Assembly: GCA_964621395.1 (NCBI GenBank)
Contig: CAZULS010000001.1
Span: 135,920 to 199,919, forward strand
From: an uncultured Candidatus Saccharibacteria bacterium
Lineage (GTDB): Bacteria; Patescibacteriota; Minisyncoccia; Phycocordibacterales; JACNGX01
Direction: 5' to 3'
DNA length: 64,000 bases
Shown here: positions 17,354-61,966 of the stretch, in pieces
How positions within the stretch are numbered: position 1 is the stretch's first letter
How the letters are laid out: the number at the start of each line of letters is the position of its first letter
Translations under genes and position numbers: made by a program
Notes under the pieces: model-generated
Databases searched by the model: none
What the model was told of the DNA's origin: nothing
Seen by the model: the letters and a program-made list of their open reading frames with translations, nothing else

Positions 17354-17902
17354 ATGACCAAAAAAGAGAAATTATTACAAACAGCACTGGAGCTATTTGC
17401 CACACAAGGCGTGGGCAATACCTCTACGGCTCAGATTACACAGGAAGCTGGTGTGGCTGAAGGGACACTCTTTGTGCATTTCAAAAACAAACAAGCACTT
17501 GTCGATGCTGTGTATACACACATTAAAGCGCATGAGGCGGAAGTGTTTGGAGAGGCAATTCATCAAGAAAAAAGCGCGGAGGCTAATGTTAAAGAACTGT
17601 CAAAGAGCATGGTCCGACATTTTGTGGAACACTACAATGAATTGTTGTTTATTGAGAACGTGAAGCACTTGGATTTGGTGTCGGAGAAAGCTGTGAAGGA
17701 AGCGCATACATCACTTACCGTACTTTTTGAAGTGTTTGCAACGTGGCAAAAGAGAGGAGAGATAAAGGCGGTTGATTTGAATGTACTTGGTGCCATGGTG
17801 TGGGCAATGATAGTATCGCTCACAGAATATTGTAAGAAGAATAACAAAAAAGTCACCGATATGTTGGTGGAGCCGATTTGGGATGCGGTCAAGTCTCACT
17901 AA
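17354..17902 (+). CDS. TetR/AcrR family transcriptional regulator
   Basis: 182 aa; N-terminal HTH LLQTALELFATQGVGNTSTAQITQEAGVAEGTLFVHFKNKQALVDAVY. Confidence 0.8.
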   Translation: MTKKEKLLQTALELFATQGVGNTSTAQITQEAGVAEGTLFVHFKNKQALVDAVYTHIKAHEAEVFGEAIHQEKSAEANVKELSKSMVRHFVEHYNELLFIENVKHLDLVSEKAVKEAHTSLTVLFEVFATWQKRGEIKAVDLNVLGAMVWAMIVSLTEYCKKNNKKVTDMLVEPIWDAVKSH

Positions 17903-18090
17903 GAGCCTGTTCATGGTTCTCAACGGAATTGAAAGAAAAAGAATAAATCCTTGTCGGCTTAATACACTGTTATACCGGCTGCAAATCGCTTAAAATGTCT
18001 TGAAGTACGAGAGTACTCCCGCGCCATTTTTCACGATTTTCGCTCGGTATAACAGTGCATTACGCACGACAAAGAACCATGAACAGGATC
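17903..18090. mobile_element. Family-C MITE (188 bp), TIR GAGCCTGTTCATGGTTCTC / AGAACCATGAACAGGATC; begins 1 nt after the TetR stop codon
   Basis: Near-identical to 10097-10285 in inverse orientation. Confidence 0.7.
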
Positions 18091-18104
18091 TAACATCGCC
18101 AAAT

Positions 18105-21134: not shown

Positions 21135-21284
21135 ATTTAATGAGAATGACGAATTAAGAATAATGAATGAAGAATATATGAAGCATAGCGCGAGAAAAGG
21201 TAGGGTGCAAGGGGTATGGACTCCAAATGTACGAATAGATACAAATCTACAAATGGTACGAATGGGCACAAATACTTCCTTTGT

Positions 21285-21369
21285 TGTCATTCCCAACTTG
21301 ATTGGGAATCTTCGTTGTTTTGTTTCTGAGAATTATTTGAGAAGATTCTGAATCAAGTTCAGAATGACA
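21285..21369. mobile_element. Family-A hairpin-ended MITE (GTCATTCCCAACTTGATTGGGAATC ... GATTCTGAATCAAGTTCAGAATGAC), with a solo half copy at 21395-21440
   Basis: Two terminal stem-loops with termini TGTCATTC / GAATGACA; the family recurs at least 12 times in the window. Confidence 0.65.
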
Positions 21370-22080
21370 AGTAACAACCCCTATAAGCCACATATCTGTC
21401 ATTCCCGACTCGATTGGGAATCTTCGTTGTTTTGTTTTCGAAAAAACAGAACCCCCGAACAAAATTGTCAGGGGTTCGAGGCTGCGCCAGCTTTTGAGCT
21501 TGCAGCCTTGCCTTATGGTAACCGAGTTATTCGCGCTGGTCAGCGAATATGGTGTGGTCGGCACCGGCGGCAGCTGAGGCAATAGTGGTATTTTTTTCTC
21601 CAAAAGGTTCAGCGGCATGGCCGAACGGAGGTGAGTGGGTACAAAGCTTTTTCATAAGCTTATCTCCTCATCTTTTTGAGTTAATCCGCAATCCTACAAT
21701 GGAACATGCGGAAAAAATGCTTACAGAAACACACTACCAAAGAACACATTGTCCCCTATATCCTGGTAAGATAAGACAAAGTTGGAACCAATCAATTGAC
21801 CCCTATTATATACCACTCAAAATATTTGTCAAGCGCATTTTGGGATTTTTTGTACAAAAAGCCAATTTCAACCTTATTTTCCAACATATTTCATGAAAAT
21901 AAAAAACACGGCGGAGCGCGAGCCCCGCCGTGTTTTCCTGGTAAACTGCTCGAAAGCTCGCCCTGTTTTCTTAATATGGCATGTCGTGAAATGTGGCTTA
22001 AACCATATTACCTTATCTTGCTAAAAAACAGCGGGGCTTTGAGCCCCGCCGTTTTCTTTTTGTGTGGTCTTTGTTATTTT

Positions 22081-23583: not shown

Positions 23584-23870
23584 AATAGTAAGTGTTAGGA
23601 GATTAATGATTAGGAGACTAAAAGAATGCAATCTCTTATTTTTAATATTTAATTTCCTAATGGCTAATCTCCTTTTATTAAAAATACCGGTGCACAAAGC
23701 ATCGGTCATCGTGAATACAGTATATCGCATGCAAGAGAAAAGTCAAGCGAGATGTTCCCTCGCCTTCATTTGTCTATAACGAAATACGTATCATGCCGAG
23801 GTTATATGTTTTTATACACACGCATAACCGATATTTCAGGTGTGTGTCTGATATACTATATATGAATACA

Positions 23871-24069
23871 TAGAACCAGTCTCACTGAAAACGTGAAAAA
23901 AATAAGAAGATCGTATTCAAGAGCTTCGCTTGACAGTTCTCGCACCCACACCGCGGCTGCACCTTGTCGCTCAACCGCACCGCACGAGAAGTGCGGCACG
24001 GTCTCCGCGACATCGGTTCGCTCGCGGTGTGGGTGCGAGAACAAGCCATTTTCAGTGAGACTGGTTCTA
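23871..24069. mobile_element. Family-D MITE (approx 200 bp), TIR TAGAACCAGTCTCACTGAAAACG / CATTTTCAGTGAGACTGGTTCTA
   Basis: Internal sequence homologous to 59423-59620; lies between nusA and pilB. Confidence 0.7.
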
Positions 24070-24088
24070 GATAAAAATTTTATATTCC

Positions 24089-25843
24089 ATGCATGCCGAT
24101 GAAACACAATTGAAAACATTTATTGTTGATTCCGGACTTATTGCCGCAGACGATCTCCTTGCGGCGGAGAAGAAGGCCAAAAAAGGGAAAAAGGCGCTCA
24201 AGGAGGTAATTCTCTCTGAAGGGCTGCTTTCGGAAGACGATCTGAGACGAGTGGAGGCGCATGTCTTTGGTATTCCCTTTGTGAATCTGAAAAATCATAA
24301 GATTGATTTTGAACTCCTTTCACTTATTCCGGAACCGATTGCGCGACGTCACAATATTATCGCCTTCAAAAAAGGAGAGGGTTCTTTGGAGGTTGCCATG
24401 CTTGATACCGATGATCTGGCAGCTATTGATTTCATCAAAAAGAAGGTGGGACTGAAAATATTGCCGCGTATTACCGATACGGCATCAATTAAGTCGGCAC
24501 TGTTGCAGTATCAAAAAAACCTCAAGGCTGAATTTGGCGACATGATTAAGGAAGAAGCAGAGGTTCTGAAGGCGGTACCGGAAAGTAAAGAAGGAGAACA
24601 GCTTTCAGAGGGTGATTTGAAAAAACTCGCTGAAGATTTACCGGTGGTGAAAATTGTCGATTCGCTCTTGAAACATGCCATTGTGCAAAATGCCTCCGAT
24701 ATTCATATTGAGCCGCAGGAAAAGGAACTTCTCATTCGCTATCGTATCGATGGTATTCTCCACGATGCCATGGTGTTGCCGAAGGCTGCGGGTCCCGGTA
24801 TTGCCGCTCGCGTAAAAGTGCTTTCAGATCTCAAACTTGATGAAAAGCGCTTGCCGCAGGATGGCCGTTTTAAAATCATCCAGAATGAAGAGAAGGTGTC
24901 GTTTCGTGTGTCCACCATCCCGACCGCTTTTGGCGAAAAAACAGTGATGCGACTTCTCCGTGAGCGCTCAAGTGGCTTCACGCTCGAGACACTCGGTTTT
25001 CACGGGGTGGGTGAAGAGCGTATTCAAGAAGCAACACGGCAAAAGACCGGTATGATTCTTGTGACCGGACCGACAGGATCGGGAAAGACGACAACGCTCT
25101 ACACCATTCTTGATATTTTGAATACTCCGGAAGTAAATATTTCCACGGTAGAAGACCCGATTGAGTATCAGGTGCCGCGCATCAATCAGACACAAGTGCG
25201 GCCGGATATTGGTTTTACCTTTTCAAAAGGATTGCGTGCGCTCGTGCGTCAGGACCCGGACATCATTCTTGTGGGCGAGATTCGTGACACCGAAACGGCA
25301 AGTCTTGGTGTGAACGCTGCCCTTACCGGTCATTTGGTGCTTTCCACGCTCCACACCAATTCCGCCGGTGGCACCATTCCGCGTATGCTTGAGATGGACG
25401 TGGAATCTTTTCTCCTTGTCTCCACAGTGAATGTTATTATCGGGCAGCGACTCGTGAGAAAACTCTGCGACACGAAAGAAAAATATTTCTTGACCAAGAG
25501 TGAAATTACGCAGCTTGGCGAAGAAGCGAATCTTGATTTGGTGATGACATACCTCAAGGAGGAGAAGGTGGTCGATGCGAAGGCAACATGGGAAAAGATT
25601 CCGTTTTATAAGCCAAAGAAGAGTGCACAGAGTGAAAGTGGATATTCCGGACGTATCGGTATTCATGAAATCTTACGCATGTCTGATGGTATCCGCACTC
25701 TTGTCATGGCAGACGCGACAGCTCATGAGATTCAAGAGCAGGCGCGGAAAGAAGGTATGATGACAATGCTTGAAGACGGTATCTTTAAGGCGGCGGCAGG
25801 AACAACGAGTATTGAGGAAGTGCTTCGCGTTGTGTCGGAATAA
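24089..25843 (+). CDS. pilB: Type IV pilus assembly ATPase PilB (GspE family)
   Basis: 584 aa; N-terminal GSPII domain, Walker A GPTGSGKTT, Asp/His boxes. Confidence 0.9.
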   Translation: MHADETQLKTFIVDSGLIAADDLLAAEKKAKKGKKALKEVILSEGLLSEDDLRRVEAHVFGIPFVNLKNHKIDFELLSLIPEPIARRHNIIAFKKGEGSLEVAMLDTDDLAAIDFIKKKVGLKILPRITDTASIKSALLQYQKNLKAEFGDMIKEEAEVLKAVPESKEGEQLSEGDLKKLAEDLPVVKIVDSLLKHAIVQNASDIHIEPQEKELLIRYRIDGILHDAMVLPKAAGPGIAARVKVLSDLKLDEKRLPQDGRFKIIQNEEKVSFRVSTIPTAFGEKTVMRLLRERSSGFTLETLGFHGVGEERIQEATRQKTGMILVTGPTGSGKTTTLYTILDILNTPEVNISTVEDPIEYQVPRINQTQVRPDIGFTFSKGLRALVRQDPDIILVGEIRDTETASLGVNAALTGHLVLSTLHTNSAGGTIPRMLEMDVESFLLVSTVNVIIGQRLVRKLCDTKEKYFLTKSEITQLGEEANLDLVMTYLKEEKVVDAKATWEKIPFYKPKKSAQSESGYSGRIGIHEILRMSDGIRTLVMADATAHEIQEQARKEGMMTMLEDGIFKAAAGTTSIEEVLRVVSE

Positions 25844-25845
25844 AA

Positions 25846-26046
25846 CATTACGAATAACGAATAACGCGAATATACGAATACACAATCATACCATTCTTGA
25901 CTCACGTATATGTCTGTCGCTATACGCTGTACCGAAACACCACAAAGAAACAATATTGACGCTACATGTTAATCGTAAGTCCGAAGCAGAGAAGCGACCC
26001 ATTCGTATATTCGCATCATATTCGTAATTCGTAATTGTTCGTAACT
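25846..26046. mobile_element. Family-B ACGAAT-rich MITE (approx 200 bp), copy 1; TIR ATTACGAATAACGAATAACGCGAATATACGAATACACAAT ... ATTCGTATATTCGCATCATATTCGTAATTCGTAAT
   Basis: Four near-identical copies occupy every spacer of the pilus cluster; diverged or composite copies at 45279-45446, 53449-53645, 54254-54420, 56216-56322, 61812-61858. Confidence 0.75.
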
Positions 26047-26158
26047 AAAAACACACGAAGATCCTGAATCAAGTTCAGGATGACATCGAAAGTGGTTTAT
26101 ATGTCAAAAATCAGATTCGTATGTTCGTACCGATTCGTAATTCGTAATTTGTTTATCC

Positions 26159-27376
26159 ATGCAGTTTACCTATACCACCATTAATAAGGAAGGGGAGCGG
26201 GAAGAAGGGCGTGCCTATGCGTCTGACAAATTTGCGCTTTCAGCACTTCTGAAAAAAGAAGGGAAAACACTTGTCTCCGCCGAAGAGGTGAAGAAGGGAG
26301 TGTTTTCTTCGATGAAGAATATCGCTCTCTTTAAGCGTATCTCAATGGATGAAAAGATTATGTTTGCGCACAACCTCGCAGCCATGACGCGCGCAGGACT
26401 TTCTCTCTCGCGGACACTTTCCATTCTTGAGCGGCAAAGTACGAATACACGTTTTAAGGAAGTAATGAATGCTCTTGCCGAGACGATTAAAAAGGGAGGA
26501 ACATTGGCCGATGCACTGCGGGAATTTCCCACAGAGTTTTCGCCGCTCTTTGTCTCTATGGTGCATGCCGGTGAAGAATCGGGCGGCTTGGCTGATGCGC
26601 TCGAAGTGGTGGGAACACAAATGAAAAAGAATCATGAGCTTGTAAAGAAGGTAAAGGGTGCCATGATTTATCCGTCGATCGTGATTGGGGTGATGGTACT
26701 TGTCGGGATAGTGATGATTGTGAAGGTGGTGCCAACACTCACGGCGACATTTGTTGAACTCGATGTTGAGTTGCCTGCTGCGACAAAGATTTTGATCGCT
26801 GTCTCTGACGCACTGCGAGACCATTTCCTTCTTGTGCTCTCCGGGGGAGTACTTCTCATTCTTCTTTTTGTATACGCAATGAAAACACAACGCGGTCGGG
26901 AGATTAAAGATGCGCTGTTGCTCCGCATGCCTCTTATCGGTGGTTTTGTCCGAGAATTCAATGCCGCACGCACAGCACGCACACTCTCTTCTCTTCTCTC
27001 TTCAGGGGTTGATATCGTTCAGTCGCTTGTCATCACGCGTGATGTGATTCAAAACACGCAATTTAAGAACACAGTGAGCAGCGCTTCGGAACGTATCCAA
27101 AAAGGCATACTGCTTTCCGTGCTCTTTTCCGAGGAAAAGGCAGGTGCACTCTATCCGATTTTGTTTTCCGAAATGATTGCCGTGGGAGAGGAGACGGGAA
27201 AAGTATCTGATATGCTTGAAGAAGTGGCGCTGTATTATGAAGGTGAGGTGGAAGCGGCAACGAAAAATATGTCGACGATTGTTGAGCCGATTCTCATGCT
27301 CATTGTGGGTGTTGTGGTGGGATTTTTCGCTCTTGCCATGATTACACCGATGTATAGCGTCATGAGCGGAATATAA
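26159..27376 (+). CDS. pilC: Type IV pilus inner-membrane platform protein PilC (GspF family)
   Basis: 405 aa; two GspF repeats and three TM segments. Confidence 0.85.
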   Translation: MQFTYTTINKEGEREEGRAYASDKFALSALLKKEGKTLVSAEEVKKGVFSSMKNIALFKRISMDEKIMFAHNLAAMTRAGLSLSRTLSILERQSTNTRFKEVMNALAETIKKGGTLADALREFPTEFSPLFVSMVHAGEESGGLADALEVVGTQMKKNHELVKKVKGAMIYPSIVIGVMVLVGIVMIVKVVPTLTATFVELDVELPAATKILIAVSDALRDHFLLVLSGGVLLILLFVYAMKTQRGREIKDALLLRMPLIGGFVREFNAARTARTLSSLLSSGVDIVQSLVITRDVIQNTQFKNTVSSASERIQKGILLSVLFSEEKAGALYPILFSEMIAVGEETGKVSDMLEEVALYYEGEVEAATKNMSTIVEPILMLIVGVVVGFFALAMITPMYSVMSGI

Positions 27377-27566
27377 ATTACGAATGACGAATAACGCGAA
27401 TATACGAATACACAATCGTACCATTCTTGGCTTACGTATATGTCTGTTACTATACGTTGTACCGAAACACCATAAAGAAATATTATTAGTGCTAAATGCT
27501 AATCGTAAGCCCGAAGCAGAAAGAATACCCTTTCGTAGATTCGTATCATATTCGTAATTCGTAATA
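27377..27566. mobile_element. Family-B MITE, copy 2
   Basis: Starts 1 nt after the pilC stop; the right TIR ends 16 nt before the next ORF. Confidence 0.75.
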
Positions 27567-27632
27567 TAAAGAGAAGTATTTATGTCAGAAAACTTCCTCA
27601 AACCATATATAGCAAGACGAAAGGACAAAGGG

Positions 27633-29363
27633 ATGAATCTTTCCCGTGGGTTTACCTTCATCGATATTCTCATTGGCATGGCGCTGATGTTGATTGTGTT
27701 TGTTTCTCTCGTCGGCGTGTTTCGTATGAGTATCGGCGTCATCGTACAGAGCAAGGCGCGAGTGGGTGCCCTTGCGCTGGTCCAGGAACGAGTGGAATTT
27801 CTCCGAAGTCTTTCATACGACGAGGTGGCAACGGAGAATGGTATCCCCGAAGGATCTCTTAAGCAAGAAGAAGCAATTACGCTTAACGGTATTCTCTACG
27901 AAAGACGTACGTTTGTGCAATATGTGGACGCACCCCAAGACGGTACGGGAAATGATGATGAGAATAATGTCCCCACCGATTATAAGGTTGCCAAAGTGGA
28001 AGTTTCTTGGACGGTGAGCGGCGTTGAAAAGAGCGTGGCGGCTGTCACCAATGTGATGCCACCCGGTATTGAAACCAATGAAGGGGGTGGGACGCTCATC
28101 ATCGAAGTGTTTGACGCTCTTTCCTCGCCCGTACAAGGAGCGACGGTGCATATCGTAAACACAAACATTGCTCCGGCGGTAGACGTGGAGGTTTCTACCA
28201 ATGAGAATGGACGGGTGATGTTTCCGGGAAGTCCGTCGGCAAACGACTATGAAATGACTGTGACAAAAAACGGATATAATTCAGCACAAACACGCGATGT
28301 AACCGCCGAGTTGCCTGTGCCGCTTCCCGGGCATGTGTCTGTTTTGGAAGGAGAAACAACAGAGGTAAGCTTTGCCATCGACCTTTTGGGGAGTTTGCGC
28401 ATTGATACGTGGCTGCCCATATTGCCGTATGTGTGGGAAGATACAATGGATACAACAGCACAGATGCAGTTCTTCAACCAAATCGCGCTTTCCTTCGGCA
28501 GTGTGGCCCTGGGAGACAGTGGTCATGGATATTATACAAACGGATCAATCATGTCTGAGGACATAACGCATACGTATCTTGATTCTTGGGATGCGTTTTC
28601 CTGGAGCGACACAACGCCTCCCGGTACCACTATTCTGTACCATGTGTACGATGCCGATACGGATACGCGTATTCCCGATGTGGTGCTTCCGGGAAATGCG
28701 GCAGGATTTTCTTCTTCTCCGGTGTCGCTATCTCTCCTTGCGCCTGAAACATACACAACGCTTTCTGTGGAAGCTCTTTTTGAAACATCTGCAACGAGCA
28801 CAACACCCGCGCTTCATGAATGGAGTGTATCATATGAAGCCGGACCAATTCCCGTGGGAGACGTACCATTTTCTCTTTCAGGAACAAAGTCTATCGGTTT
28901 TGACGGCGAGGGAGAACCGGTACTTGCCTACGATACCAATCAGGTAACAGATGCAAACGGTAACATCGTCATCGATCTTCTGACGTGGGATACGTATACG
29001 GTTATCGTTGATGATGATGCGTCGGGATACGATGTACGGGCATTGTGTCCGGAGGCACCGTTTGGAGTTGATCCCGGTGAGAATGAAGAAGTGGATATCT
29101 ATCTTGCGCCCGATACACAGCACTCTCTTCGAGTGATTGTCTATACGACTGAGCCGGCACCGGCAGCAGGTGTGGATGTGGAGCTTTCACGGAGTGGATT
29201 TTCCGCGGAAGAAACAACCGACTCATGTGGACAGGCCTTTTTTGCAGATCTTGTCTCTTCAAGTAATTATGTTCTCAGTGTGGACGATTCTCCCTTTGGT
29301 ACTGGAACGGTGAGCGATGTGTCGGTGGATGGTGTGTCGTTTGAAGAGGTGTGGTTGGAGTAG
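27633..29363 (+). CDS. Large pilin-like protein with prepilin-type N-terminal cleavage/methylation domain
   Basis: Leader MNLSRG then FTFIDILIGMALMLIVFVSLVG (class III signal; Asp at +5 instead of Glu); 577 aa; C-terminal region with repeated beta-rich segments. The track ORF starts 17 codons earlier (27582). Confidence 0.6.
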   Translation: MNLSRGFTFIDILIGMALMLIVFVSLVGVFRMSIGVIVQSKARVGALALVQERVEFLRSLSYDEVATENGIPEGSLKQEEAITLNGILYERRTFVQYVDAPQDGTGNDDENNVPTDYKVAKVEVSWTVSGVEKSVAAVTNVMPPGIETNEGGGTLIIEVFDALSSPVQGATVHIVNTNIAPAVDVEVSTNENGRVMFPGSPSANDYEMTVTKNGYNSAQTRDVTAELPVPLPGHVSVLEGETTEVSFAIDLLGSLRIDTWLPILPYVWEDTMDTTAQMQFFNQIALSFGSVALGDSGHGYYTNGSIMSEDITHTYLDSWDAFSWSDTTPPGTTILYHVYDADTDTRIPDVVLPGNAAGFSSSPVSLSLLAPETYTTLSVEALFETSATSTTPALHEWSVSYEAGPIPVGDVPFSLSGTKSIGFDGEGEPVLAYDTNQVTDANGNIVIDLLTWDTYTVIVDDDASGYDVRALCPEAPFGVDPGENEEVDIYLAPDTQHSLRVIVYTTEPAPAAGVDVELSRSGFSAEETTDSCGQAFFADLVSSSNYVLSVDDSPFGTGTVSDVSVDGVSFEEVWLE

Positions 29364-29366
29364 CAA

Positions 29367-29557
29367 AATTACGAATGACAAATAACGCGAATATACGAAT
29401 ACACAATCGTACCGATAGAAGTTCTTATATTCGTATTATCACAATCTATTGTAATGGGAGATCACAAAGAATATATACGTGTCATATGATAAACGTAAGC
29501 CCGAAGCAGAAAGAACACCCATTCGTAGATTCGTATTATATTCGTAATTCGTAATAT
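29367..29557. mobile_element. Family-B MITE, copy 3
   Basis: As above. Confidence 0.75.
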
Positions 29558-29611
29558 TAAGAAGAATACATGTTTCATCATTCCAAACAATTGAAAAAAG
29601 AAAGACGACGG

Positions 29612-30217
29612 ATGAATGTATCGCGTGTTTCCGGTATCTCCATCGTAGAAATGGTTGTATCAATTGCAATGGCAACATTTGCCATTGTTGCTATCGGCTC
29701 GTTTACCATATCGTTTTATCGCACTAATGCCTACGGTATCGAACAATCGTTTGCCATCCATTCTGCCCGTAAAGGTATCGACCTTATGGTGCGTGACATC
29801 CGTGAAGCAACCTATTCTGACGAGGGGAGTTTCCCTGTGGTATCAATCGCACCGTATGCAATGGTTGTGTACAGTGATGTTGATCGTGATGATTCAGTAG
29901 AGCGCATCAGTTTTTCGCTTGAGGGTACAAACCTTATCCGAGGAAAAGCTGAGAGTGCAGGCGATCCGCCGGTATATCCGGGAGAGAACGATGAAGAGTA
30001 TAGCGTTTCCGATTCCGTCCGCAACGAAACGTATGGAACACCGATATTTCAATATTATGATGAATCAGGAAATGAAATTACCGACTACGACGCTGTGACC
30101 GATGTGGTGTTTGTGACCGTGAATGTGTTGGTGAATATTAATCCGAGTCGTTTGCCGCGTGATTTTTCTTTGCGTTCCAGTGCGTCATTGCGAAATACGC
30201 GTGTCGGTACGGAGTAG
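29612..30217 (+). CDS. Pilin-like protein (prepilin-type N-terminal domain)
   Basis: Leader MNVSRVSG then ISIVEMVVSIAMATFAIVAIG (G | hydrophobic helix with Glu at +5); approx 201 aa mature. The track ORF begins 14 codons earlier. Confidence 0.6.
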   Translation: MNVSRVSGISIVEMVVSIAMATFAIVAIGSFTISFYRTNAYGIEQSFAIHSARKGIDLMVRDIREATYSDEGSFPVVSIAPYAMVVYSDVDRDDSVERISFSLEGTNLIRGKAESAGDPPVYPGENDEEYSVSDSVRNETYGTPIFQYYDESGNEITDYDAVTDVVFVTVNVLVNINPSRLPRDFSLRSSASLRNTRVGTE

Positions 30218-30220
30218 CAG

Positions 30221-30408
30221 AATTACGAATGACGAATAACGCGAATATACGAATACACAATCTACCATTCTTGGCTCACGTATATGTCTGTCGCTATACG
30301 CTGTACCGAAACACCACAAAGAAATATCTTGGCATAAGACGACAGCCACAAGCCCGAAGCAGAAAGAATACCCATTCGTAGATTCGTATCATATTCGTAA
30401 TTCGTAAC
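30221..30408. mobile_element. Family-B MITE, copy 4; right end carries TATAAT 9 nt upstream of the next ATG
   Basis: As above; sequence ...TTCGTAACTGTAGTATAATAGAAACAATATG. Confidence 0.75.
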
Positions 30409-30428
30409 TGTAGTATAATAGAAACAAT

Positions 30429-31832
30429 ATGAACGATGTACATTCCTCTCGCGGATATATGATGATTATGGTGCTGGTGTTTGGCGCCGTGTTTATTACA
30501 CTCATGGGTGGTTTGTCGGGGTTTGTGTTGATGCAAAAGAACGTTACTGAGAAAAAAGAGTATGCCGAACAGGCGCTTCAAATTGCCGAAGCGGGACTCG
30601 AATATTACCGATGGTTTCTTTCCCACAACCCGGGTGATACAACAGACGGGACCGGAGAACCCGGTCCCTATGAGCACATCTATGCCGATCCGGAAGGAGG
30701 AGATATTGGAACGTTTTCTCTCAATATCGCAGGGACTGTCTCATGCAGTGAAATTACCTCCATTGATATTTATTCAACGGGATGGGTTGATGCTGATCCT
30801 GATGTGACGCGAACGGTATACGGCAAATATACTCGTCCGTCTGTCGCCGAATATGCGTATGTCTTAAATGATAATGTATGGGCGGGAAGCGACCGACAGA
30901 TTTATGGTCCGTATCATTCCAATCTTGGTATTCGCATGGACGGAACCAATCACTCTATTGTGACATCAGGCGTGGAAGAGTGGCGATGTACGAGCAGCTT
31001 TGGCTGCTCTCCTTCGCGGGATGAGAGCGGAGTATTTGGTGACGGACCCAATACCGAACTATGGGACTTTCCCGCGGAGACGGTTGATTTTGTGGGCATC
31101 TCCGTTGACCTGGTGCATATGAAAGATCGCGCGCAAAACGGAGGCGGTTTGTATTTTCCCAAAGTATCAAATTGGCGAAACCGTGAGGGATACCGCGTGA
31201 TTTTTCGGGAGAGCGGCACCATTGATGTCTATGAGGTGACGAGCACGCGGAGGGTATGGAGTGAGCCGGTCGGACGCGCCACGGAAGATAATTACGAAAG
31301 AATTCATTCGCAGCACTATGTGGGGAATTATGACATACCGGAGGAGTGCAGTTTACTGTTTTTCGAAGATAATCTGTGGGTGGAAGGAGAGGTGGAAGGA
31401 AGAGTAACGCTTGTATCCGCCAACGTGACTGATCCGGGAACCGATACCAACGTGTACCTCATTGATGATATTACCTATGCAGATACCCAGAGCGGGTTGA
31501 CGCTTCTCGGTGAGCACTCGGTCTTGATTGCGTACGATGTGCCGTATAATCTTGAACTTCGCGGTATTTTCATCGCACAAATGGGATCGTTCGGGCGGAA
31601 TTATTACAATCCATGGTGGTTGTCGCTCTCTAAGCGAGGAGTGCTTGAAATGACCGGCAGCATCGTATCCAACGGACGCGTGGGAACAAAGTGGACGTCT
31701 TGGGGATCCCATGTATCGGGCTTTGCACAGCGATATAACTCCTATGATCGACAGCTTGCGGGGGATCCGCCACCGTTTACGCCGTATATGGACGATGAGT
31801 ATCGTTTTGTCGAGTGGCGACAGGAGGAATAA
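30429..31832 (+). CDS. PilX-like pilus assembly / minor pilin protein
   Basis: 467 aa; N-terminal TM helix then QALQIAEAGLEYYRWFL, matching the PilX N-terminal domain pattern (A..AEAG). Confidence 0.5.
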   Translation: MNDVHSSRGYMMIMVLVFGAVFITLMGGLSGFVLMQKNVTEKKEYAEQALQIAEAGLEYYRWFLSHNPGDTTDGTGEPGPYEHIYADPEGGDIGTFSLNIAGTVSCSEITSIDIYSTGWVDADPDVTRTVYGKYTRPSVAEYAYVLNDNVWAGSDRQIYGPYHSNLGIRMDGTNHSIVTSGVEEWRCTSSFGCSPSRDESGVFGDGPNTELWDFPAETVDFVGISVDLVHMKDRAQNGGGLYFPKVSNWRNREGYRVIFRESGTIDVYEVTSTRRVWSEPVGRATEDNYERIHSQHYVGNYDIPEECSLLFFEDNLWVEGEVEGRVTLVSANVTDPGTDTNVYLIDDITYADTQSGLTLLGEHSVLIAYDVPYNLELRGIFIAQMGSFGRNYYNPWWLSLSKRGVLEMTGSIVSNGRVGTKWTSWGSHVSGFAQRYNSYDRQLAGDPPPFTPYMDDEYRFVEWRQEE

Positions 31833-31920
31833 TGGTTGCTGGTCCTAGTTGGCGCGGCTTTCGCCGCGCCTTTTCCAATGTCCCCTGGTATTCCGCTTAT
31901 GTATGGGGGATAATATATGT

Positions 31921-32997
31921 ATGATGTCTACCCCACACATGGTGCGTCGCATTATATACGGTGCTTTTGTACTAATCATCGGATGTGTATTCTTGGTTCC
32001 GATTGCATACGCAAACCCTCATCAAAATATAGATGATGGAGGAACAGGTTCAGGTACCAACGGCTACGTCCTCCTCGAACCCAGTATTCTCGTTCAAGGA
32101 GGAGGCAAATCCGCAAGTCCCGCCGACTATCTCGAAAACATCTTCTACTTTATGATCGGCACAGCCGGTGTCTTGGCAGTCCTTGTATTTGCCATTGGCG
32201 GTATTCAGTTTATGGTCTCAGGTGCCACTCCTTCTGCAAAGAAGGAAGGACAAGAAAAAATGACTGCCGCCATCTTCGGACTCATCCTCGCTCTCGGCAC
32301 CTGGCTTATTTTAAACACTATCAATCCGGATTTGGTGAAGAAGTTTGACTTGAAGCTTGATACGGTGACGGTGACGGGGAGTGGGGGAACGGGAAGCGGA
32401 ACGAGCACTCCGGGGAACCTTCCCTCAAATCTTCCCATAGGATGTTCGAATTATAAGAATGCTTTTATCAATGCGGCAAACACTGCAAAAATTGACGCGT
32501 GTCTTCTCTATGCGGTTGCATCACAGGAGTCGGGCTGTAATCCCGGTTTGGTAAGTAAGGCGGGTGCATGTGGCATTATGCAAATGCTTCCCTCAACAGC
32601 AAATGCCTCATGCAACTGGCTCAAGACAAATCCCGAAGCAAGTATTCTCAGGGCGGCTTTTTATCTGAAAAGCAATGCAAACGGATTGCATGCATATGAC
32701 AGTATGTTTGATATCGGTAATGCATATGGTCAATCAGGAAAAACAGTGCAAGTTGGTGGCTTTATATATGATACGGGGAACGATGATCTCATTGCATCGT
32801 ACAATGCCGGAAATGGTACGGTATCAACAAATGGTCGAGGACCATTTTCCCTCTCCCAAGATTGTCCAAAATCAACATATGGGACGAACATCCCCGCATG
32901 GCAATGTCATATCAATCCGGGAGGATTTGATGAAACACAAAATTATGTTCGTCGCGTGCAGTCATATCAGGATATGTGTAATCTGAAAGGGTTGTAA
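31921..32997 (+). CDS. Fusion protein: signal peptide + VirB2/TrbC-like two-helix hairpin + lytic transglycosylase (SLT) domain
   Basis: Hairpin IFYFMIGTAGVLAVLVFAIGGIQFMVSG-ATPSAKKEGQEKM-TAAIFGLILALGTWLILNTI; SLT motif AVASQESGCNPGLVSKAGACGIMQMLPSTA (ES ... GLMQ ... TA). Start placed at MMSTPHMVRR because the track start (31849) overlaps a terminator hairpin. Confidence 0.55.
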   Translation: MMSTPHMVRRIIYGAFVLIIGCVFLVPIAYANPHQNIDDGGTGSGTNGYVLLEPSILVQGGGKSASPADYLENIFYFMIGTAGVLAVLVFAIGGIQFMVSGATPSAKKEGQEKMTAAIFGLILALGTWLILNTINPDLVKKFDLKLDTVTVTGSGGTGSGTSTPGNLPSNLPIGCSNYKNAFINAANTAKIDACLLYAVASQESGCNPGLVSKAGACGIMQMLPSTANASCNWLKTNPEASILRAAFYLKSNANGLHAYDSMFDIGNAYGQSGKTVQVGGFIYDTGNDDLIASYNAGNGTVSTNGRGPFSLSQDCPKSTYGTNIPAWQCHINPGGFDETQNYVRRVQSYQDMCNLKGL

Positions 32998-33018
32998 GTG
33001 TGATATAATTGAGAGAAG

Positions 33019-34053
33019 ATGATTCAGAGAATGCAACGTAATATGTGGGACGTGGGTATTCTTTTGGCAATCGTGTCGTGCGCGGTTGTTGTTTTTGGGG
33101 AGCCCACACTCGCGTATAGTCCTGAAGGAACCGGCTACGCCCTCCTCGAACCCAGTATTCTCGTTCAAGGAGGAGGCAAATCCGCAAGTCCCGCCGACTA
33201 TCTCGAAAACATCTTCTACTTTATGATCGGCACAGCCGGTGTCTTGGCAGTCCTTGTATTTGCCATTGGCGGTATTCAGTTTATGGTCTCAGGTGCCACT
33301 CCTTCTGCAAAGAAGGAAGGACAAGAAAAAATGACTGCCGCCATCTTCGGACTCATCCTCGCTCTCGGCACCTGGCTTATTTTAAACACTATCAATCCGG
33401 ATTTGGTGAAGAAGTTTGACTTGAAGCTTGATACGGTGACGGTGACGGGGAGTGGGGGAACGGGAAGTACATATGATGGGAAGTTGAATGAAATTACCAT
33501 AACAAGAGAAGATGGAACAACCTACACGTTTAGGGGAATACAAGACGCATATCAAAGCTCACCTGGATTGCAGCTCGTGGGGGAGGATGGAAAGTATCTT
33601 CCCGAGAAAATAACAAAGGAAGAGGCAATGCGATATACGCTTATGAAAGATAGTGATATTGTGATTACGAGTACAACAGGAAGTTCAAAGCCATGTACCT
33701 ATCCCGGACAAACGGGATGTACGGATCTCTATGGCATGAAAGCCGCGACAATAGAAGAAATAAAATATATTGATGAAAAAACAAAGGGTCAAGTTTTGGT
33801 GACGGGCGGCACGGAACATGGGCCACATGCTATCGGAGCGTATAGTCATGGAAGTGGACATAAGGTGGACATTGATGATACATCGAATGTGACTGATTAT
33901 GTGGAGAATAATTTTATTCGAAGAAAAGATTTAGATAGAGAAGGAACACATGCTTCTCGCGCATACGAAAATCCTGACACGGAAGCCATCTGGCATCATG
34001 AGTATAAGAAGAAAACGCATTTTGATGTAGTGGTGTATCCCGAGAGACCTTAA
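33019..34053 (+). CDS. Paralog: same VirB2/TrbC-like hairpin N-terminus (approx 330 bp identical DNA) + LAS/M15-like peptidase C-terminal domain
   Basis: Residues approx 40-150 are identical to the preceding gene; C-terminal GTEHGPHAIGAYSHGSGHKVDIDD resembles the VanY/M15 motif SxHxxGxAxDI. Confidence 0.5.
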   Translation: MIQRMQRNMWDVGILLAIVSCAVVVFGEPTLAYSPEGTGYALLEPSILVQGGGKSASPADYLENIFYFMIGTAGVLAVLVFAIGGIQFMVSGATPSAKKEGQEKMTAAIFGLILALGTWLILNTINPDLVKKFDLKLDTVTVTGSGGTGSTYDGKLNEITITREDGTTYTFRGIQDAYQSSPGLQLVGEDGKYLPEKITKEEAMRYTLMKDSDIVITSTTGSSKPCTYPGQTGCTDLYGMKAATIEEIKYIDEKTKGQVLVTGGTEHGPHAIGAYSHGSGHKVDIDDTSNVTDYVENNFIRRKDLDREGTHASRAYENPDTEAIWHHEYKKKTHFDVVVYPERP

Positions 34054-34055
34054 AA

Positions 34056-34100
34056 AGCACATAAACACGCGGCGCCGAAGGCGCCGCGTGTTTATGTGCT
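34056..34100 (+). terminator. 21-bp-stem terminator AGCACATAAACACGCGGCGCC-GAA-GGCGCCGCGTGTTTATGTGCT
   Basis: Read directly; starts 3 nt after the stop of 33019..34053. Confidence 0.6.
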
Positions 34101-34118
34101 TCATGCTATAATACCCCT

Positions 34119-34901
34119 ATGAAAAAGAAAGCAGAAAAAAACCGTACGCTCATTGTTGCCAATTGGAAAATGAATCCGGCAACGCTTGCCGATGCGAAAA
34201 AGCTCGCCATGAAGTCACAGTCTCTTGGAAAAGGCCTCAAAAAGACCGTACTCATCGTGTGTCCGCCGTTTCCTTTCTTGGGTGACGTTGCAGCACCGAG
34301 CGCAAAAGGATATGCGTATGGCTCACAGGATATTTCGAGTGAGTCACTCGGATCACATACGGGAGATGTTGCCGCAATCCAAGTGGCATCACTCAAAGCT
34401 TTATATACAATCGTGGGTCATTCCGAGCGTCGCGAAATGGGAGAAAGCGATGAGGATGTAGCGGCAAAGGTGCGCGCGGCCCTTTCGGCAAAACTCACTC
34501 CGATTGTATGTGTTGGTGAAAAAGAGCGCGATGATGAAGCGAAATATCTTCTCACATTACGCGAGCAGATTCACAATTCCCTTGAAGGAGTATCGTCGCG
34601 TGATTTCGGTAACATTATCATTGCCTACGAACCAATATGGGCCGTCGGTGGATCAATTGCCGATACTCCCGATGATACAGCCGAGACAATTCTCTTTATA
34701 AAGAGAACACTCATGGAGCTTACGAGTGAGAAGACAGCTCTGTCTATTCCGATTTTGTACGGCGGTTCGGTTGATGATAAAAACGCAGCAGGATTTCTTG
34801 CCAAAGAAGAGATTGACGGACTGCTTGTCGGACGCGCAAGCAGGGATCCTAAAAAGCTCGCTGCGATTATCGACGCTTCAGAAAGAAGGGATGTTGCGTA
34901 A
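34119..34901 (+). CDS. tpiA: Triosephosphate isomerase
   Basis: IVANWKMN, VGHSERRE, AYEPIWAVGGS, YGGSV signatures. Confidence 0.9.
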   Translation: MKKKAEKNRTLIVANWKMNPATLADAKKLAMKSQSLGKGLKKTVLIVCPPFPFLGDVAAPSAKGYAYGSQDISSESLGSHTGDVAAIQVASLKALYTIVGHSERREMGESDEDVAAKVRAALSAKLTPIVCVGEKERDDEAKYLLTLREQIHNSLEGVSSRDFGNIIIAYEPIWAVGGSIADTPDDTAETILFIKRTLMELTSEKTALSIPILYGGSVDDKNAAGFLAKEEIDGLLVGRASRDPKKLAAIIDASERRDVA

Positions 34902-34902
34902 T

Positions 34903-35099
34903 CTATTTTGTTGTCATCCCGCACTTGATGCGGGATCTTCCCGAATTACCTTTAGAAACAAGACAGCGAAGATTCCGGGTCACCAGAGCCCCACTTTCAC
35001 CAATGCTGTATATGATAAAACATCTTCCACCCTTTCTTCTATCGTCTACGACCTCTTCATGTACTCAGTGAAAGTGAAGCTCGGCAGGAGCCCGGAATG
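34903..35099. mobile_element. Composite family-A/family-E repeat filling the tpiA-pgk spacer
   Basis: GTCATCCCGCACTTGATGCGGGATC hairpin, then CCAGAGCCCCACTTTCACC ... CAGTGAAAGTGAAGCTCGGCAGGAGCCCGGAATGACA; near-duplicate of 49620-49968. Confidence 0.65.
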
Positions 35100-36257
35100 A
35101 CATATACATTTATGAAATCATCACTCCCACAACTGAGTACTTTGAATGCAAATATGCTTCGCGGGAAGTATGTGCTTGTTCGTGCTGGGGTGAATGTGCC
35201 GCTTGTGAATGGAAAAGTGGCGGATGGTTTTCGTATTAAAAAAGCACTCCAAACGATTCACTTTCTCAAAAAGGCGGGGGCTCGTGTCATTGTGATTGCT
35301 CATATCGGACGTGACCCTAAGGAATCGCTTCTTCCTGTTGTACGCTACATGAACACCAAGACACGCATCGGATTTGCTTCGGATGTCTTTGGCCCGGCCA
35401 CTGAAAAGATGATTGCCAATATGAAAAACGGCACTGCCCTTCTTCTGGAAAACCTTCGTCAGCATGAGGAAGAAAAAGGGAATAACGTTGCCTTTGCAAA
35501 GCGTTTGGCGTCGTATGCGGATCTATATGTGAATGATGCCTTCTCTGTCTCTCACCGCGGACATGCTTCTATTGTCTCCATACCGAAATATCTTCCTTCG
35601 TATATCGGATTGTCATTCGAGGAGGAACACGGAGAACTTATGCGTATGCGTGAGCCAAAAGAGCCATTCGTGCTTGTGTTGGGCGGGGCGAAAATAAAAA
35701 CAAAGATGCCACTCTTGTCTCTCTATGCGAAAAAAGGAGACACGGTGTGTGTCGGCGGTGCAATTGCTAACACCTTGCTCAAAGCGCGAGGATATGAAAT
35801 CGGAAAGTCTGTTGCCGATGATACGAAAGAGCTTTCAGCTTTGGCGAAGAAAAAGAATATTCTCTTGCCGGTTGATGTTGTGGTGGAAACGGCAAAAAAA
35901 GAGCGCATCGTGCGGGATGTGGGTGATATACGGAAAACGGATACCATTTTTGATATTGGTCCGGAGACGGTACGCACGTGGGAAGAAGTGTTGTCACATG
36001 CGAAATCAATTGTGGCAAATGGTCCTTTGGGGTGGTATGAAAAAGGGTATACGAAGGGAACGAAAGATATATTGAAGGTTATTGCACAAGGCAGTGCGCG
36101 GAGTGTGGTTGGTGGTGGCGATACGGTGGCGCTCGTACGAAGTGCAAAGATGGCTCAAGACATCACATTTCTCTCAACCGCCGGCGGCGCCATGCTTGAT
36201 TTCCTTGCTGATGGGAGTCTGCCCGGGATTAAGGCGATAATAGAAGTTAGGAATTAG
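35097..36257 (+). CDS. pgk: Phosphoglycerate kinase
   Basis: 386 aa; N-terminal RAGVNVPL ... hinge and C-terminal nucleotide-binding motifs; SD AGGAG 7 nt upstream. Confidence 0.9.
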   Translation: MTYTFMKSSLPQLSTLNANMLRGKYVLVRAGVNVPLVNGKVADGFRIKKALQTIHFLKKAGARVIVIAHIGRDPKESLLPVVRYMNTKTRIGFASDVFGPATEKMIANMKNGTALLLENLRQHEEEKGNNVAFAKRLASYADLYVNDAFSVSHRGHASIVSIPKYLPSYIGLSFEEEHGELMRMREPKEPFVLVLGGAKIKTKMPLLSLYAKKGDTVCVGGAIANTLLKARGYEIGKSVADDTKELSALAKKKNILLPVDVVVETAKKERIVRDVGDIRKTDTIFDIGPETVRTWEEVLSHAKSIVANGPLGWYEKGYTKGTKDILKVIAQGSARSVVGGGDTVALVRSAKMAQDITFLSTAGGAMLDFLADGSLPGIKAIIEVRN

Positions 36258-40392: not shown

Positions 40393-40402
40393 CACTCCCT
40401 TT

Positions 40403-40513
40403 GTCATTCCGTACTTGATGCGGAATCTCCGTTATATTGTTTCTTGGGATTGTTTGCGAAGATCCCGCATTGCATCCGATCGTTTGCGATATAGGATCAA
40501 GTGCGGGATGACA
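40403..40513. mobile_element. Family-A hairpin-ended MITE (GTCATTCCGTACTTGATGCGGAATC ... GATCAAGTGCGGGATGACA)
   Basis: Starts 11 nt after the RNase H stop. Confidence 0.65.
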
Positions 40514-43415: not shown

Positions 43416-43603
43416 TATGCTCATCTCACGGCATATTTTATTCCCCAAACTCTTTTTTGTAGTCGAGCACCACTTTCACTTATTACTTACATTGGTCGAT
43501 ATGAAAAAATAGGTGGACATCATCTAAATTATCAAAGAAGGTATTAGTGGAAGTGGTGCTTGGCGATGGGAAAGATGTGCGAAGAGTGCGATAGTCGCGC
43601 CAC

Positions 43604-43736
43604 TGTCATTCCGTGCTTGACACGGAATCTAAAAACCAAGGTTGAGCTTTGGTATGTATACCAAAGCTCAACCTTGGTTTTCGAATAACACTCAGAAACA
43701 ATATAGCGGAGATCCCGCATCAAGTGCGGGATGACA
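43604..43736. mobile_element. Family-A MITE containing a 23-bp perfect palindrome (AAACCAAGGTTGAGCTTTGGTAT-GT-ATACCAAAGCTCAACCTTGGTTT, 43631-43678)
   Basis: Read directly. Confidence 0.65.
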
Positions 43737-44657: not shown

Positions 44658-45278
44658 ATGATATCAGGAATTGAAATTATATTTGGTATTGCTGTTTTGA
44701 TTATGTCGGTGATTGCTCATGAGGTGTCGCACGGATATGCCGCCGCGCTTTTGGGAGATCCGACGGCACGTTTGGCAGGGCGATTGTCGCTCAATCCGGT
44801 GAAGCACATTGATCCGGTGGGTTCTATTGTCGTGCCCCTCCTTTCTTACATGCTCGGTGGATTTATTTTCGGATGGGCAAAGCCGGTGCCGTATAATCCG
44901 TATAATCTGAAAAATCAGCGTTTTGGTCCGGCGATTGTTGCTGCGGCAGGGCCGGCTATGAATATTGCCATTGCCATTATCTTTGGTATGTTGGTGCGTT
45001 TTGCCGCTCCGCTCGGTATCGCCAATGAGGCATTTTATTCACTGGCAATTATGATTGTCTTTATTAATGTGCTTTTGGCGCTTTTCAATCTTATCCCTAT
45101 CCCGCCGCTTGATGGCTCCAAAATACTCTCCGCATTTCTCCCCGGCAGATATCTCTCTTTCATGGCATCGCTTGAGCAATACTCCTTCTTTGCTGTTATT
45201 ATCTTCATCCTTCTCTTCTGGCAATCTATTGTGCCGGTGGTATACGGCATTACGTGGTTTTTGGTGGGAGGCGCTTAG
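44658..45278 (+). CDS. Site-2 protease family (peptidase M50) membrane metalloprotease
   Basis: HEVSHGYAA (HExxH) in the first TM helix; LNPVKHIDPVGS downstream motif. Confidence 0.75.
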   Translation: MISGIEIIFGIAVLIMSVIAHEVSHGYAAALLGDPTARLAGRLSLNPVKHIDPVGSIVVPLLSYMLGGFIFGWAKPVPYNPYNLKNQRFGPAIVAAAGPAMNIAIAIIFGMLVRFAAPLGIANEAFYSLAIMIVFINVLLALFNLIPIPPLDGSKILSAFLPGRYLSFMASLEQYSFFAVIIFILLFWQSIVPVVYGITWFLVGGA

Positions 45279-45446
45279 GGGTACGAAGTACGAATGAGTA
45301 CGAACATACGAAGACAGCTCGCAGTGAGCTACTTGTTGTCATCCAAAAAACACACGAAGATTCCGCATCAAGTGCGGAATGACAGCAAAAAAGAGTTATA
45401 TGCTGAAAGTCAGACTCGTATGTTCGTATATGTTTGTAGTTCGTAC
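45279..45446. mobile_element. Composite family-B variant (GTACGAA TIRs) enclosing a family-A hairpin
   Basis: GGGTACGAAGTACGAATGAGTACGAACATACGAAG ... CGTATGTTCGTATATGTTTGTAGTTCGTACCC with internal GATTCCGCATCAAGTGCGGAATGACA; sister copy at 53449-53645. Confidence 0.6.
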
Positions 45447-52647: not shown

Positions 52648-52689
52648 AGCTTGATTACGATTCCCACCGCAAGGTAGGAAGAGTAGAAG

Positions 52690-53277: not shown

Positions 53278-53448
53278 TTGAGCAGTATTGCTCGGGTTCG
53301 CGCATTCAATTTGCCCAGCGAAGTGAATGCGCTCTACCCGATCAATGCAAGAAGCGGCGACGGCGGCGCGCAAAGCGCCCCGCCGCAACAACGCGAATCA
53401 TGACATGAATAGATATGTCACGAGCCGCATGTTTTTTGTATTGCATAA

Positions 53449-53645
53449 GGGTACGAACTACGAACATATACGAACATACGGAGACAGTGTCTCGCGACAT
53501 AATATAATTATATCGTCATTCCGCACTTGATGCGGAATCTAGGAGACTCTGTATCTGGATTCCTGGTCAAGCCAGGAATGACAGCAAAAGAGAGTTTCCT
53601 GCTGAAAGTCAGATTCGTATGTTCGTACAAATTCGTAGTTCGTAA
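53449..53645. mobile_element. Composite family-B variant enclosing family-A hairpins, between rpsJ and the inserted minus-strand ORF
   Basis: GGGTACGAACTACGAACATATACGAACATACGGAG ... GTCATTCCGCACTTGATGCGGAATC ... CCAGGAATGACA ... GATTCGTATGTTCGTACAAATTCGTAGTTCGTAAC. Confidence 0.6.
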
Positions 53646-53710
53646 CAGTTCATAACACAAAAAAACCGCACAGCGGCATATGACGAATCATATACATGTG
53701 CGGTCGGGTT

Positions 53711-54253: not shown

Positions 54254-54420
54254 GAAACGTATAATTCCGAATTACGAATGCACGCGAATATACGAATGAG
54301 TGAAATAGCGGATGTGCCTTCGAAGTATCCTCGGAACATATATAACAATAAGAAGAGAAATATAAAAATGCACGATATATTGAGTATTCGTATATTCGTA
54401 ATAAATTCGTAATTCGTAAC
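54254..54420. mobile_element. Family-B MITE variant directly upstream of rplC (right TIR ends 3 nt before the ATG)
   Basis: ATTACGAATGCACGCGAATATACGAATGAG ... GTATTCGTATATTCGTAATAAATTCGTAATTCGTAAC. Confidence 0.65.
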
Positions 54421-56211: not shown

Positions 56212-56215
56212 ATCA

Positions 56216-56322
56216 TCGAATTACAAATGAAATACGAATATACGAATTACAAATATATGTGTTAATGATAATAAAGAGCATGATTTGTAATTTGTATATT
56301 TGTATCAATTCGTAATTTGTTT
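56216..56322. mobile_element. Miniature family-B derivative (ACGAAT/ACAAAT-rich, approx 107 bp) between rplW and rplB
   Basis: CGAATTACAAATGAAATACGAATATACGAATTACAAATA ... TATTTGTATCAATTCGTAATTTG. Confidence 0.5.
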
Positions 56323-61811: not shown

Positions 61812-61966
61812 ATTACGAATTACGAATAACGCGAATATACGAATACACAATACAGTTTCTGAGAACAATTATCCTGTCATTCATACAAAAGCGGAGATCC
61901 CGCATCACCCACGCCCCAGTTTTCAAGAAAGAGGAAAACTGAGCGGGGCAAGAGTGCGGGATGACA
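61812..61966. mobile_element. Family-B left half (AATTACGAATTACGAATAACGCGAATATACGAATACACAAT) + family-A hairpin (TGTCATTC ... GTGCGGGATGACAG) inserted between rpsQ and rplN
   Basis: Read directly; followed by AAGCTCAAAGCTATAAGCTAT motif (61997-62025). Confidence 0.6.

Follow-up and report, generated by a model that had tools for sequence, protein, structure and literature searches.

Palindromic intergenic repeats in the type IV pilus gene cluster of an uncultured candidate-phyla-radiation bacterium

The pilus gene cluster and its spacers

The spacers of a type IV pilus gene cluster were analysed in a 64,000-nucleotide (nt) stretch of DNA from an uncultured Candidatus Saccharibacteria bacterium (assembly GCA_964621395.1, contig CAZULS010000001.1, positions 135,920 to 199,919 of the forward strand); this whole stretch is called the window, and all coordinates refer to it unless a relative is named. 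A first-pass annotation had described the spacers as copies of one near-identical miniature inverted-repeat transposable element (MITE), termed family B, and had proposed its domestication as a portable promoter and terminator cassette. A PilB-type ATPase, a PilC-type platform protein and prepilin-like genes were found together at the locus, as in type IV pilus clusters, and the 215-amino-acid (aa) protein carries the prepilin motif G|ISIVE. The genes and the features between them are as follows.

24089..25843, plus strand: pilB-type ATPase gene, 584 aa (Pfam T2SSE, 2.6e-122; MshEN)
25847..26035, plus strand: family-B element e1, 189 nt, 3 nt past the pilB stop codon
26047..26150, plus strand: second module of the same spacer, a GATCCTGAATCAAGTTCAGGATGACA hairpin and an A-type right arm (4 x TTCGTA), 77% identical to 45346-45445
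26159..27376, plus strand: pilC-type platform protein gene, 405 aa (Pfam T2SSF, 1.6e-51; homologues)
27377..27565, plus strand: family-B element e2, 189 nt, directly adjoining the pilC TAA
27582..29363, plus strand: 593-aa pilin-like gene (Pfam CarboxypepD_reg; syntenic in relatives)
29368..29555, plus strand: family-B element e3, 188 nt, with a variant centre, between the 593-aa and 215-aa genes
29570..30217, plus strand: 215-aa prepilin-like gene (alignment to relatives; homologues named PilW/PulG by JGI)
30222..30408, plus strand: family-B element e4, 187 nt, between the 215-aa and 467-aa genes
30414..30419, plus strand: TATAAT box ahead of the 467-aa gene (9 nt to its ATG), in unique flank outside the repeat and ancestral
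30429..31832, plus strand: 467-aa PilX-like gene (alignment, 75% identity to relatives)

The four family-B elements all lie in one orientation and fill the spacers between pilB, pilC and the 593-aa, 215-aa and 467-aa genes. They begin 0-4 nt past the preceding stop codon; a start close to the stop had been described correctly, but its range of 1-4 nt had to be widened for e2. Over their whole length the elements are 77-90% identical to one another, with agreement at 38-40 of 40 positions in the left 40 nt, at 32-34 of 36 in the right 36 nt and at 74-96 of 113 in the centre; the centre of e3 differs from those of the other pil copies, and the four pil copies are mutual closest relatives. The ends read ATTACGAAT on the left and ATTCGTAAT on the right. 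The 40-nt left arm, ATTACGAAT[N]ACGAATAACGCGAATATACGAATACACAAT, was matched five times in the window with at most one mismatch and not once in 100 shuffles, and the 34-nt right arm was matched five times with at most three mismatches against none expected in shuffles. The presence of near-identical elements between the pilus genes was thereby confirmed. An assembly artefact was ruled out because the copies differ from one another in their substitutions, their flanks are unique and the genes lie in the same order as in relatives.

The inverted ends described earlier were recovered, although they are shorter than the ∼40 bp given for them: the arms pair over ∼33-35 nt with one 2-nt indel, and 28-31 of 32-33 positions align. 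Each arm is an array of four to five TACGAA(T) boxes arranged as direct repeats without local folding, so that pairing runs from arm to arm across ∼110 nt. Indels between copies speak against a conserved open reading frame (ORF), reading frames having been judged informally. No family was assigned to the elements by an Rfam search at the gathering threshold and at E<=1, and a BLAST search with e2 against phage and plasmid collections gave no match. Directly after e2 comes a native purine-rich, ribosome-binding-like stretch, AAAGAGAAG. One element per spacer had been proposed; this holds for the pilB-pilC spacer in so far as e1 is present, but the 315-nt spacer is composite, with e1 followed by a hairpin module and the right arm of another subfamily, the second module stopping ∼8 nt before the pilC ATG.

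For the 215-aa gene the source annotation uses an internal ATG at 29612 (201 aa); alignment with relatives favours the upstream ATG at 29570, which lies 13-14 nt past e3 and gives an unusually long leader peptide of 22 residues.

Insertion, turnover and spread of the elements

The cluster was compared with syntenic pilus clusters in L005 (the NIOZ-UU136 metagenome-assembled genome, or MAG; PilC 90% identical), L013 and L010 (JGI contigs, 88%), L008 (a TARA scaffold, PilC 82%) and L011 and L012 (Yonathbacteria MAGs, 60-66%). The order of the pilus genes is identical in all of them. PilC matches the 360-kb source contig at 100%, and its closest named relatives belong to Parcubacteria and Candidatus Yonathbacteria MAGs. 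In L005, L013 and L008 the spacer between the 593-aa gene and the pilin measures 2-3 nt, against 206 nt with e3 in the window, and the spacer between the pilin and the PilX-like gene measures 5-8 nt, against 211 nt with e4; the alignments show stop and start positions at both junctions to be otherwise conserved. Spacers of 2-8 nt within the same gene order show that e3 and e4 are lineage-specific insertions into a formerly compact, tightly packed operon. A search for relatives with the 215-aa pilin returned a next match of only 66% identity and no strain-level empty site for e3 or e4. The earlier description of inserted, repeated, non-coding elements with inverted-repeat ends is supported by these short spacers and by the presence, absence or replacement of related elements between the window and a 97%-identical strain.

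The other two junctions behave differently from e3 and e4 in that arm-type sequence is present at pilB-pilC and pilC-593aa in all four close genomes, with differing subfamily and a size of 27-338 nt; L005 has a full A-type element at pilB-pilC. Subfamilies A, B and C were also shown to occupy many other gene junctions, including those of ribosomal protein operons. The further copies in the window are listed below.

21228..21280, plus strand: solo C-type left arm, beside hairpin modules
45277..45446, plus strand: A-type element (GGGTACGAAGTACGAA...GTTCGTACCC), between an M50 peptidase gene and rpsL
53447..53647, plus strand: A-type element, away from any start codon, in a long spacer flanked by two minus-strand ORFs
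54262..54419, plus strand: diverged arm-type element, its right arm ending 4 nt before the rplC ATG
56213..56322, plus strand: mini-C-type element with TACAAAT/TACGAAT boxes, in the rplW-rplB spacer; identity of 77.5% to the L005 pilC-594 spacer
61812..61851, plus strand: solo family-B left arm, directly past the rpsQ stop codon

The copies upstream of rplC and rplB had been taken for the same element as that in the pilus cluster; they are shorter, diverged relatives that belong to other subfamilies. The left arm starts with ATTACGAAT... in B, GGGTACGAAGTACGAA... in A and TCGAATTACAAAT... in mini-C, and the boxes read TACAAA(T) in subfamily C; the box spacing of 7, 10-11 and 7-8 nt from the outer end is common to A, B and mini-C.

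Junction content was shown to turn over between species and even between strains. Between rpmC and rpsQ there are 9 nt in the window but an arm-type element in NIOZ-UU136 (contig L002), where the rpmC frame terminates at a TAA within the arm. At the rpsQ-rplN junction the window has the solo B left arm with a nested module and NIOZ-UU136 (L002) the solo arm only, 39 of its 40 positions being kept; a complete mini-C element stands there instead in the strain contig L014, which is 97% identical in rplN. The boundaries of all three variants are identical, a TAA and GAGCCGCGTAGCGGCG.

The distribution of arms was recorded by a regular-expression census over the window and the relatives' loci. Arm clusters are nearly all intergenic, with left arms 2-10 nt past stop codons and right arms ending 5-23 nt before start codons. 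The A-type copy at 53447-53647 sits free within a 535-nt spacer and is not adjacent to a start; the closeness to codons is therefore as expected if insertions can survive only inside very short spacers. Five B copies were found in the window and three in the NIOZ-UU136 MAG, and the B left arm is invariant at 38 positions in these eight copies from two species. L011 and L012 have few arms or none; L012, whose PilC is only ∼61% identical, carries upstream of pilB an A-type left arm almost identical to that of the window. A scan of genome and metagenome collections with a 20-mer of the left arm returned one related MAG (the same two contigs in both collections), with intergenic copies only, and did not return the source genome. 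Among viral contigs a 17-mer of the right arm had 17 matches, about the chance number by a rough estimate and mostly in unrelated contexts, except for one or two isolated mini-hairpins. At 7545-7790 of L012 the arms of an A-type element enclose degenerate AAGAAT/GGAATTAAGAAT repeats, which make up a long purine-rich tract.

Traces of how the elements spread were found in their flanks. The left flank GGAGTAGCA(A/G)A, which includes the TAG stop codon, is held in common by e3 and e4 at 10 of 11 nt, and the repeat match between the two (96% over 52 nt) begins 11 nt to the left of the arm. The GGAGTAGCA flank is native to the 593-aa gene, whose relatives end in ...LE and the stop. It is foreign to the pilin, the final five to six codons of which are unlike those of relatives in alignment: the window protein ends in RVGTE and its relatives in RYRDL, diverging exactly after a shared CGGTAC. 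A shared flank that is native to one gene and foreign to the other points to copying that carried the flank along, by recombination or gene conversion. Such copying also fits the observation that neighbouring junctions share a subfamily within a genome (B at all four in the window; C, C in L013). Beyond the right arm, e2 and e3 are alike at ∼6 of 8 nt, which is suggestive only.

The best reading of these data is that the repeats behave like the selfish intergenic repeats of other bacteria and are tolerated in spacers. The elements are probably a lineage-specific family of palindromic intergenic repeats of the MITE/BOX/Correia kind in a Parcubacteria clade near Candidatus Yonathbacteria, and not a source of promoters. 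The TACGAAT boxes would be bound in trans by a DNA enzyme, a transposase or recombinase, whose gene lies elsewhere, and spread within the operon would proceed by flank-carrying copying and not by clean cut-and-paste. Only the short gap from a stop codon to the following start would tolerate an insertion, and the ends would for that reason hug both codons. The pil mRNA would run through the elements, which would fold into a long hairpin in it.

Several observations weigh against this account. No target-site duplication was found in the three filled/empty comparisons (e3, e4 and the L002 rpmC-rpsQ site); at these sites the spacer is replaced, not interrupted, and at e4 and L002 the last upstream codons are replaced as well. 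In the ORFs examined of the window and the fetched loci there is no transposase or recombinase domain, nor did this sequence yield a longer element with the same arms at its ends. Solo left arms are conserved at 39 of 40 positions between two species whose neighbouring coding DNA is ∼88% identical, a hint that more than simple parasitism constrains them. Nor would pure neutrality lead one to expect the shared orientation of the B-type copies, of which eight in nine run with transcription.

The missing duplications, the flank-carrying copying and the conserved solo arms keep a second reading open at a low probability, namely that the arms are recognition sites of a novel Parcubacteria recombination system that swaps stop-to-start 'spacer cassettes', each perhaps with a stop codon and a translation-initiation region of its own. 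Such swapping would account for the absence of target duplications, for the common flank of e3 and e4, for the exchange of one subfamily for another at exact boundaries at rpsQ-rplN in near-identical strains and for the near-identity of arms across genomes only ∼60% identical in PilC.

RNA folding, promoter signals and box arrays

Selection by the host for an RNA hairpin, either as an RNase III-type processing or stabilising stem or as a means of preserving translational coupling by stop-start proximity, was considered doubtful. The sense stems of e1-e4 are long, with predicted energies of -38.6 to -48.7 kcal/mol and z-scores of -2.5 to -4.3 for e2-e4, and the base of the stem is separated from the stop codon by 0-4 nt and from the start codon by 12-20 nt. 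The co-orientation of B copies would fit such a role, as would the cutting of Correia stems by RNase III (PMC10969869). The pattern of substitution in the arms does not: 25 mismatches are G-U in the sense RNA against 24 that are G-U only in the antisense, so that there is no excess of G-U over A-C on the sense strand, and 29 arm pairs are invariant within family B and give no covariation support. Apparent compensatory pairs in the centre were rejected as an artefact of aligning the non-homologous centre of e3. Family B also folds better as antisense than as sense RNA (-62.8 versus -44.7 kcal/mol); this advantage arises because the sense strand is C-rich and G-poor, and it vanishes with DNA parameters. 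Solo arms, which cannot pair, are nevertheless conserved, and relatives function without e3 and e4. With mismatches split evenly and without wobble bias, the symmetry of the arms looks like a property of the DNA, maintained at that level and not for pairing in RNA.

Promoters were sought by a sigma-70 scan of region 23700-34200 with a threshold of at least 9 of 12 matches. No site was found in any right arm, and the 12 sites in the region are fewer than the 17 expected from shuffles. The best arm-derived pair, TTCGTA-N16-TAATAT, scores only 7 of 12. A terminator scan of the same region returned none that coincides with an element, and no T-run follows the stem. Right arms end at 4 (rplC copy), 10-11, 13-14, 16, 20 and 123 nt (e1) from the ATG.

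The TATAAT box before the 467-aa gene had been credited to e4. It lies outside the repeat, and L005, L013 and L008, which have no e4, carry TTTATAAT 4-7 nt ahead of the ATG, where it overlaps the stop codon of the pilin gene; the box therefore predates the insertion and was retained downstream of e4. More generally, 19 of the 127 genes in the window and the relatives' loci have a -10-like hexamer that ends 6-9 nt ahead of the ATG, against a background estimated by eye at one to two per offset (∼5 expected over the four offsets). The earlier proposal of individually promoted, near-leaderless genes thus finds some support as a property of the clade, but not with the element as the source: such genes seem to be a habit of the clade that is independent of the element, and the clade's own near-ATG -10 boxes may account for its tolerance of insertions that uncouple an operon. 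At the junction before the triose-phosphate isomerase (TIM) gene (window 34054-34118) a GC-rich terminator hairpin is followed by TGnTATAAT-N6-ATG, an arrangement of the leaderless promoter type present in the three informative close genomes (window, L005 and L008).

The cassette proposed in the first-pass annotation, in which the left arm and stem would terminate transcription and the right arm would supply -35 and -10 boxes, giving each pilus gene its own short-leader transcript, is unlikely in the light of these scans. In its favour, the right arm closes with TAATAT in e2 (14 nt from the ATG) and in e3 (12 nt); Correia elements and several other bacterial MITEs carry sigma-70-like promoters (PMC10969869, PMC2649163); elements lie inside ribosomal protein operons, where a pure terminator would harm; and the clade favours -10 boxes near start codons. 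It is opposed by the failure of the right arms in the sigma-70 scan, by arm-to-ATG distances of 4-123 nt that are incompatible with the fixed -10-N6-9-ATG layout of the clade, by the ancestral position outside the repeat of the sole good TATAAT and by the absence of a T-run. The elements do not provide the promoters of the pilus genes, and there is no sign of their recruitment as promoters; domestication as a promoter and terminator cassette is not borne out.

Even less credence was given to clade-wide cis-regulatory box arrays, in which a host factor that binds DNA or RNA would recognise TACGAAT and so mark the boundaries of genes, the repeats being maintained for that role. The box spacing conserved across subfamilies, the A-type arm shared with the distant L012, the solo B arm kept at an orthologous junction and the left arm invariant in eight copies from two species would all suit such sites, but an active mobile family predicts conserved ends equally well. 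The occupancy of orthologous junctions is moreover very variable (2 versus 206 nt; different subfamilies at one site), and the scarcity of arms in L011 and L012 also counts against a clade-wide function.

Other repeat families and comparison with known systems

Repeats within the window amount to ∼6.9% of the 64 kb (4,410 nt) and are nearly all intergenic except for a coding duplication of ∼670 nt. Candidate-phyla-radiation bacteria have tiny, gene-dense genomes, and this share is unusual for a small, gene-dense Parcubacteria genome. The coding duplication involves 336 nt at 32061-32396 and 33132-33467, in adjacent genes of 382 aa and 344 aa that both contain a T4SS_pilin domain; 100% identity was reported over 300 nt, and a recent event of duplication or gene conversion is suggested.

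Unrelated to the arm-type elements is a second family, ∼200 nt long and ending in inverted repeats (TAGAACCAGTCTCACTGAAAA...TTTTCAGTGAGACTGGTTCTA), with members at 23871-24069, 59423-59620 and 62717-62911. One of its copies lies directly upstream of the pilB ATG, and its rplX-rplE variant is missing from the 97%-identical contig L014, where the spacer measures 12 nt. A 190-nt repeat occurs at 10096-10285, 17902-18091 and 52679-52830 and also at 7476-7667 of L008 (TARA), with 76-87% identity. The TIM-PGK spacer measures 195 nt in the window, 251 nt in L005 and 2 nt in L008 and L013; its insert belongs to yet another repeat family (window 34902-35102 and 49787-49961). A hairpin module, GTCATTCC-N-TTGA-N-GGAATC, is present in ∼15 copies in both orientations, often nested in or beside arm-type elements, and includes the following.

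21279-21422, 26057-26085, 34906-34937, 40396-40427, 43598-43736, both orientations among copies: GTCATTCC hairpin modules
45356-45384, 46524-46555, 47295-47323, 53508-53585, 63803-63886, both orientations among copies: GTCATTCC hairpin modules

Palindromic repeat families split operons that are normally tightly coupled, those of the type IV pilus and of ribosomal proteins, and they differ between near-identical strains. Such repeats mark strain-level variation and break short-read assemblies, contigs L014-L016 ending at or near repeats. By implication the lineage tolerates the uncoupling of operon genes, possibly since many genes have a -10 box of their own right before the ATG. The attractive account of a domesticated promoter cassette is corrected here as unsupported.

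The features of prokaryotic MITEs that were found are small size (187-189 nt), non-coding sequence, terminal inverted repeats and dispersed, polymorphic copies; a target-site duplication was not seen at the three testable sites, and no autonomous partner was found in the window or the fetched loci. The pilus locus also recalls integron attC arrays such as the Vibrio cholerae repeats, with co-oriented genes and a near-identical imperfect palindrome right after each stop codon, but an integron-like array with attC-type sites between mobile gene cassettes was rejected as scarcely credible, since the genes form a conserved, core, syntenic pilus operon with the same order in five related genomes, whether or not these have the repeats, the arm ends ATTACGAAT...ATTCGTAAT have no RYYYAAC/GTTRRRY core sites, no integrase domain was found in neighbouring ORFs and single-stranded DNA folding gives no bottom-strand advantage.

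REP and BIME sequences of enterobacteria and pseudomonads are intergenic palindromes within or at the ends of operons, without target duplication, for which a trans-acting enzyme is supposed. REP units are single hairpins of 20-40 nt with a GTAG-type head and are mobilised by RAYT, an IS200/IS605-type transposase. The present arms differ from them in measuring 33-40 nt, in lying ∼110 nt apart and in consisting of four to five direct heptamer boxes each, and no RAYT was found in the available sequence (the window and the fetched loci).

Correia elements of Neisseria (CREE/NEMIS) are palindromic, non-coding sequences of ∼100-150 nt with inverted-repeat ends that are gene-adjacent, co-transcribed and strain-polymorphic and form long RNA stems (PMC2649163, PMC10969869). 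The present family is like them in its palindromic build, inverted-repeat ends, gene-adjacent siting, strain-level presence or absence and long RNA stems. Correia elements are confined to Neisseria and have a TA target duplication, -35 and -10 boxes in their ends and an IHF site, whereas in the present family no duplication is seen, the arms have no promoter consensus and are heptamer arrays, and there is no sequence similarity; neither the 26-bp inverted-repeat sequence of Correia elements nor their TA duplication was found here.

The BOX elements of Streptococcus pneumoniae, like RUP and SPRITE, are modular, with nested and composite copies, and have been judged parasitic and likely to affect co-transcribed genes (PMC3049150). 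The likeness extends to two complementary end modules around a variable middle, to nesting and to the occurrence of several unrelated families in one small genome. The middles of BOX elements are tandem boxB units and those of the present family are unrelated sequence or other hairpin modules; the present family also differs in its sequence, its phylum and its strong local amplification within one operon. Literature searches returned no description of such MITE-like repeats in Patescibacteria, in Parcubacteria or in candidate-phyla-radiation bacteria at large. Set beside these systems, the pilus-operon repeats form a new family within a known class of element, and such elements had no earlier description from this phylum.

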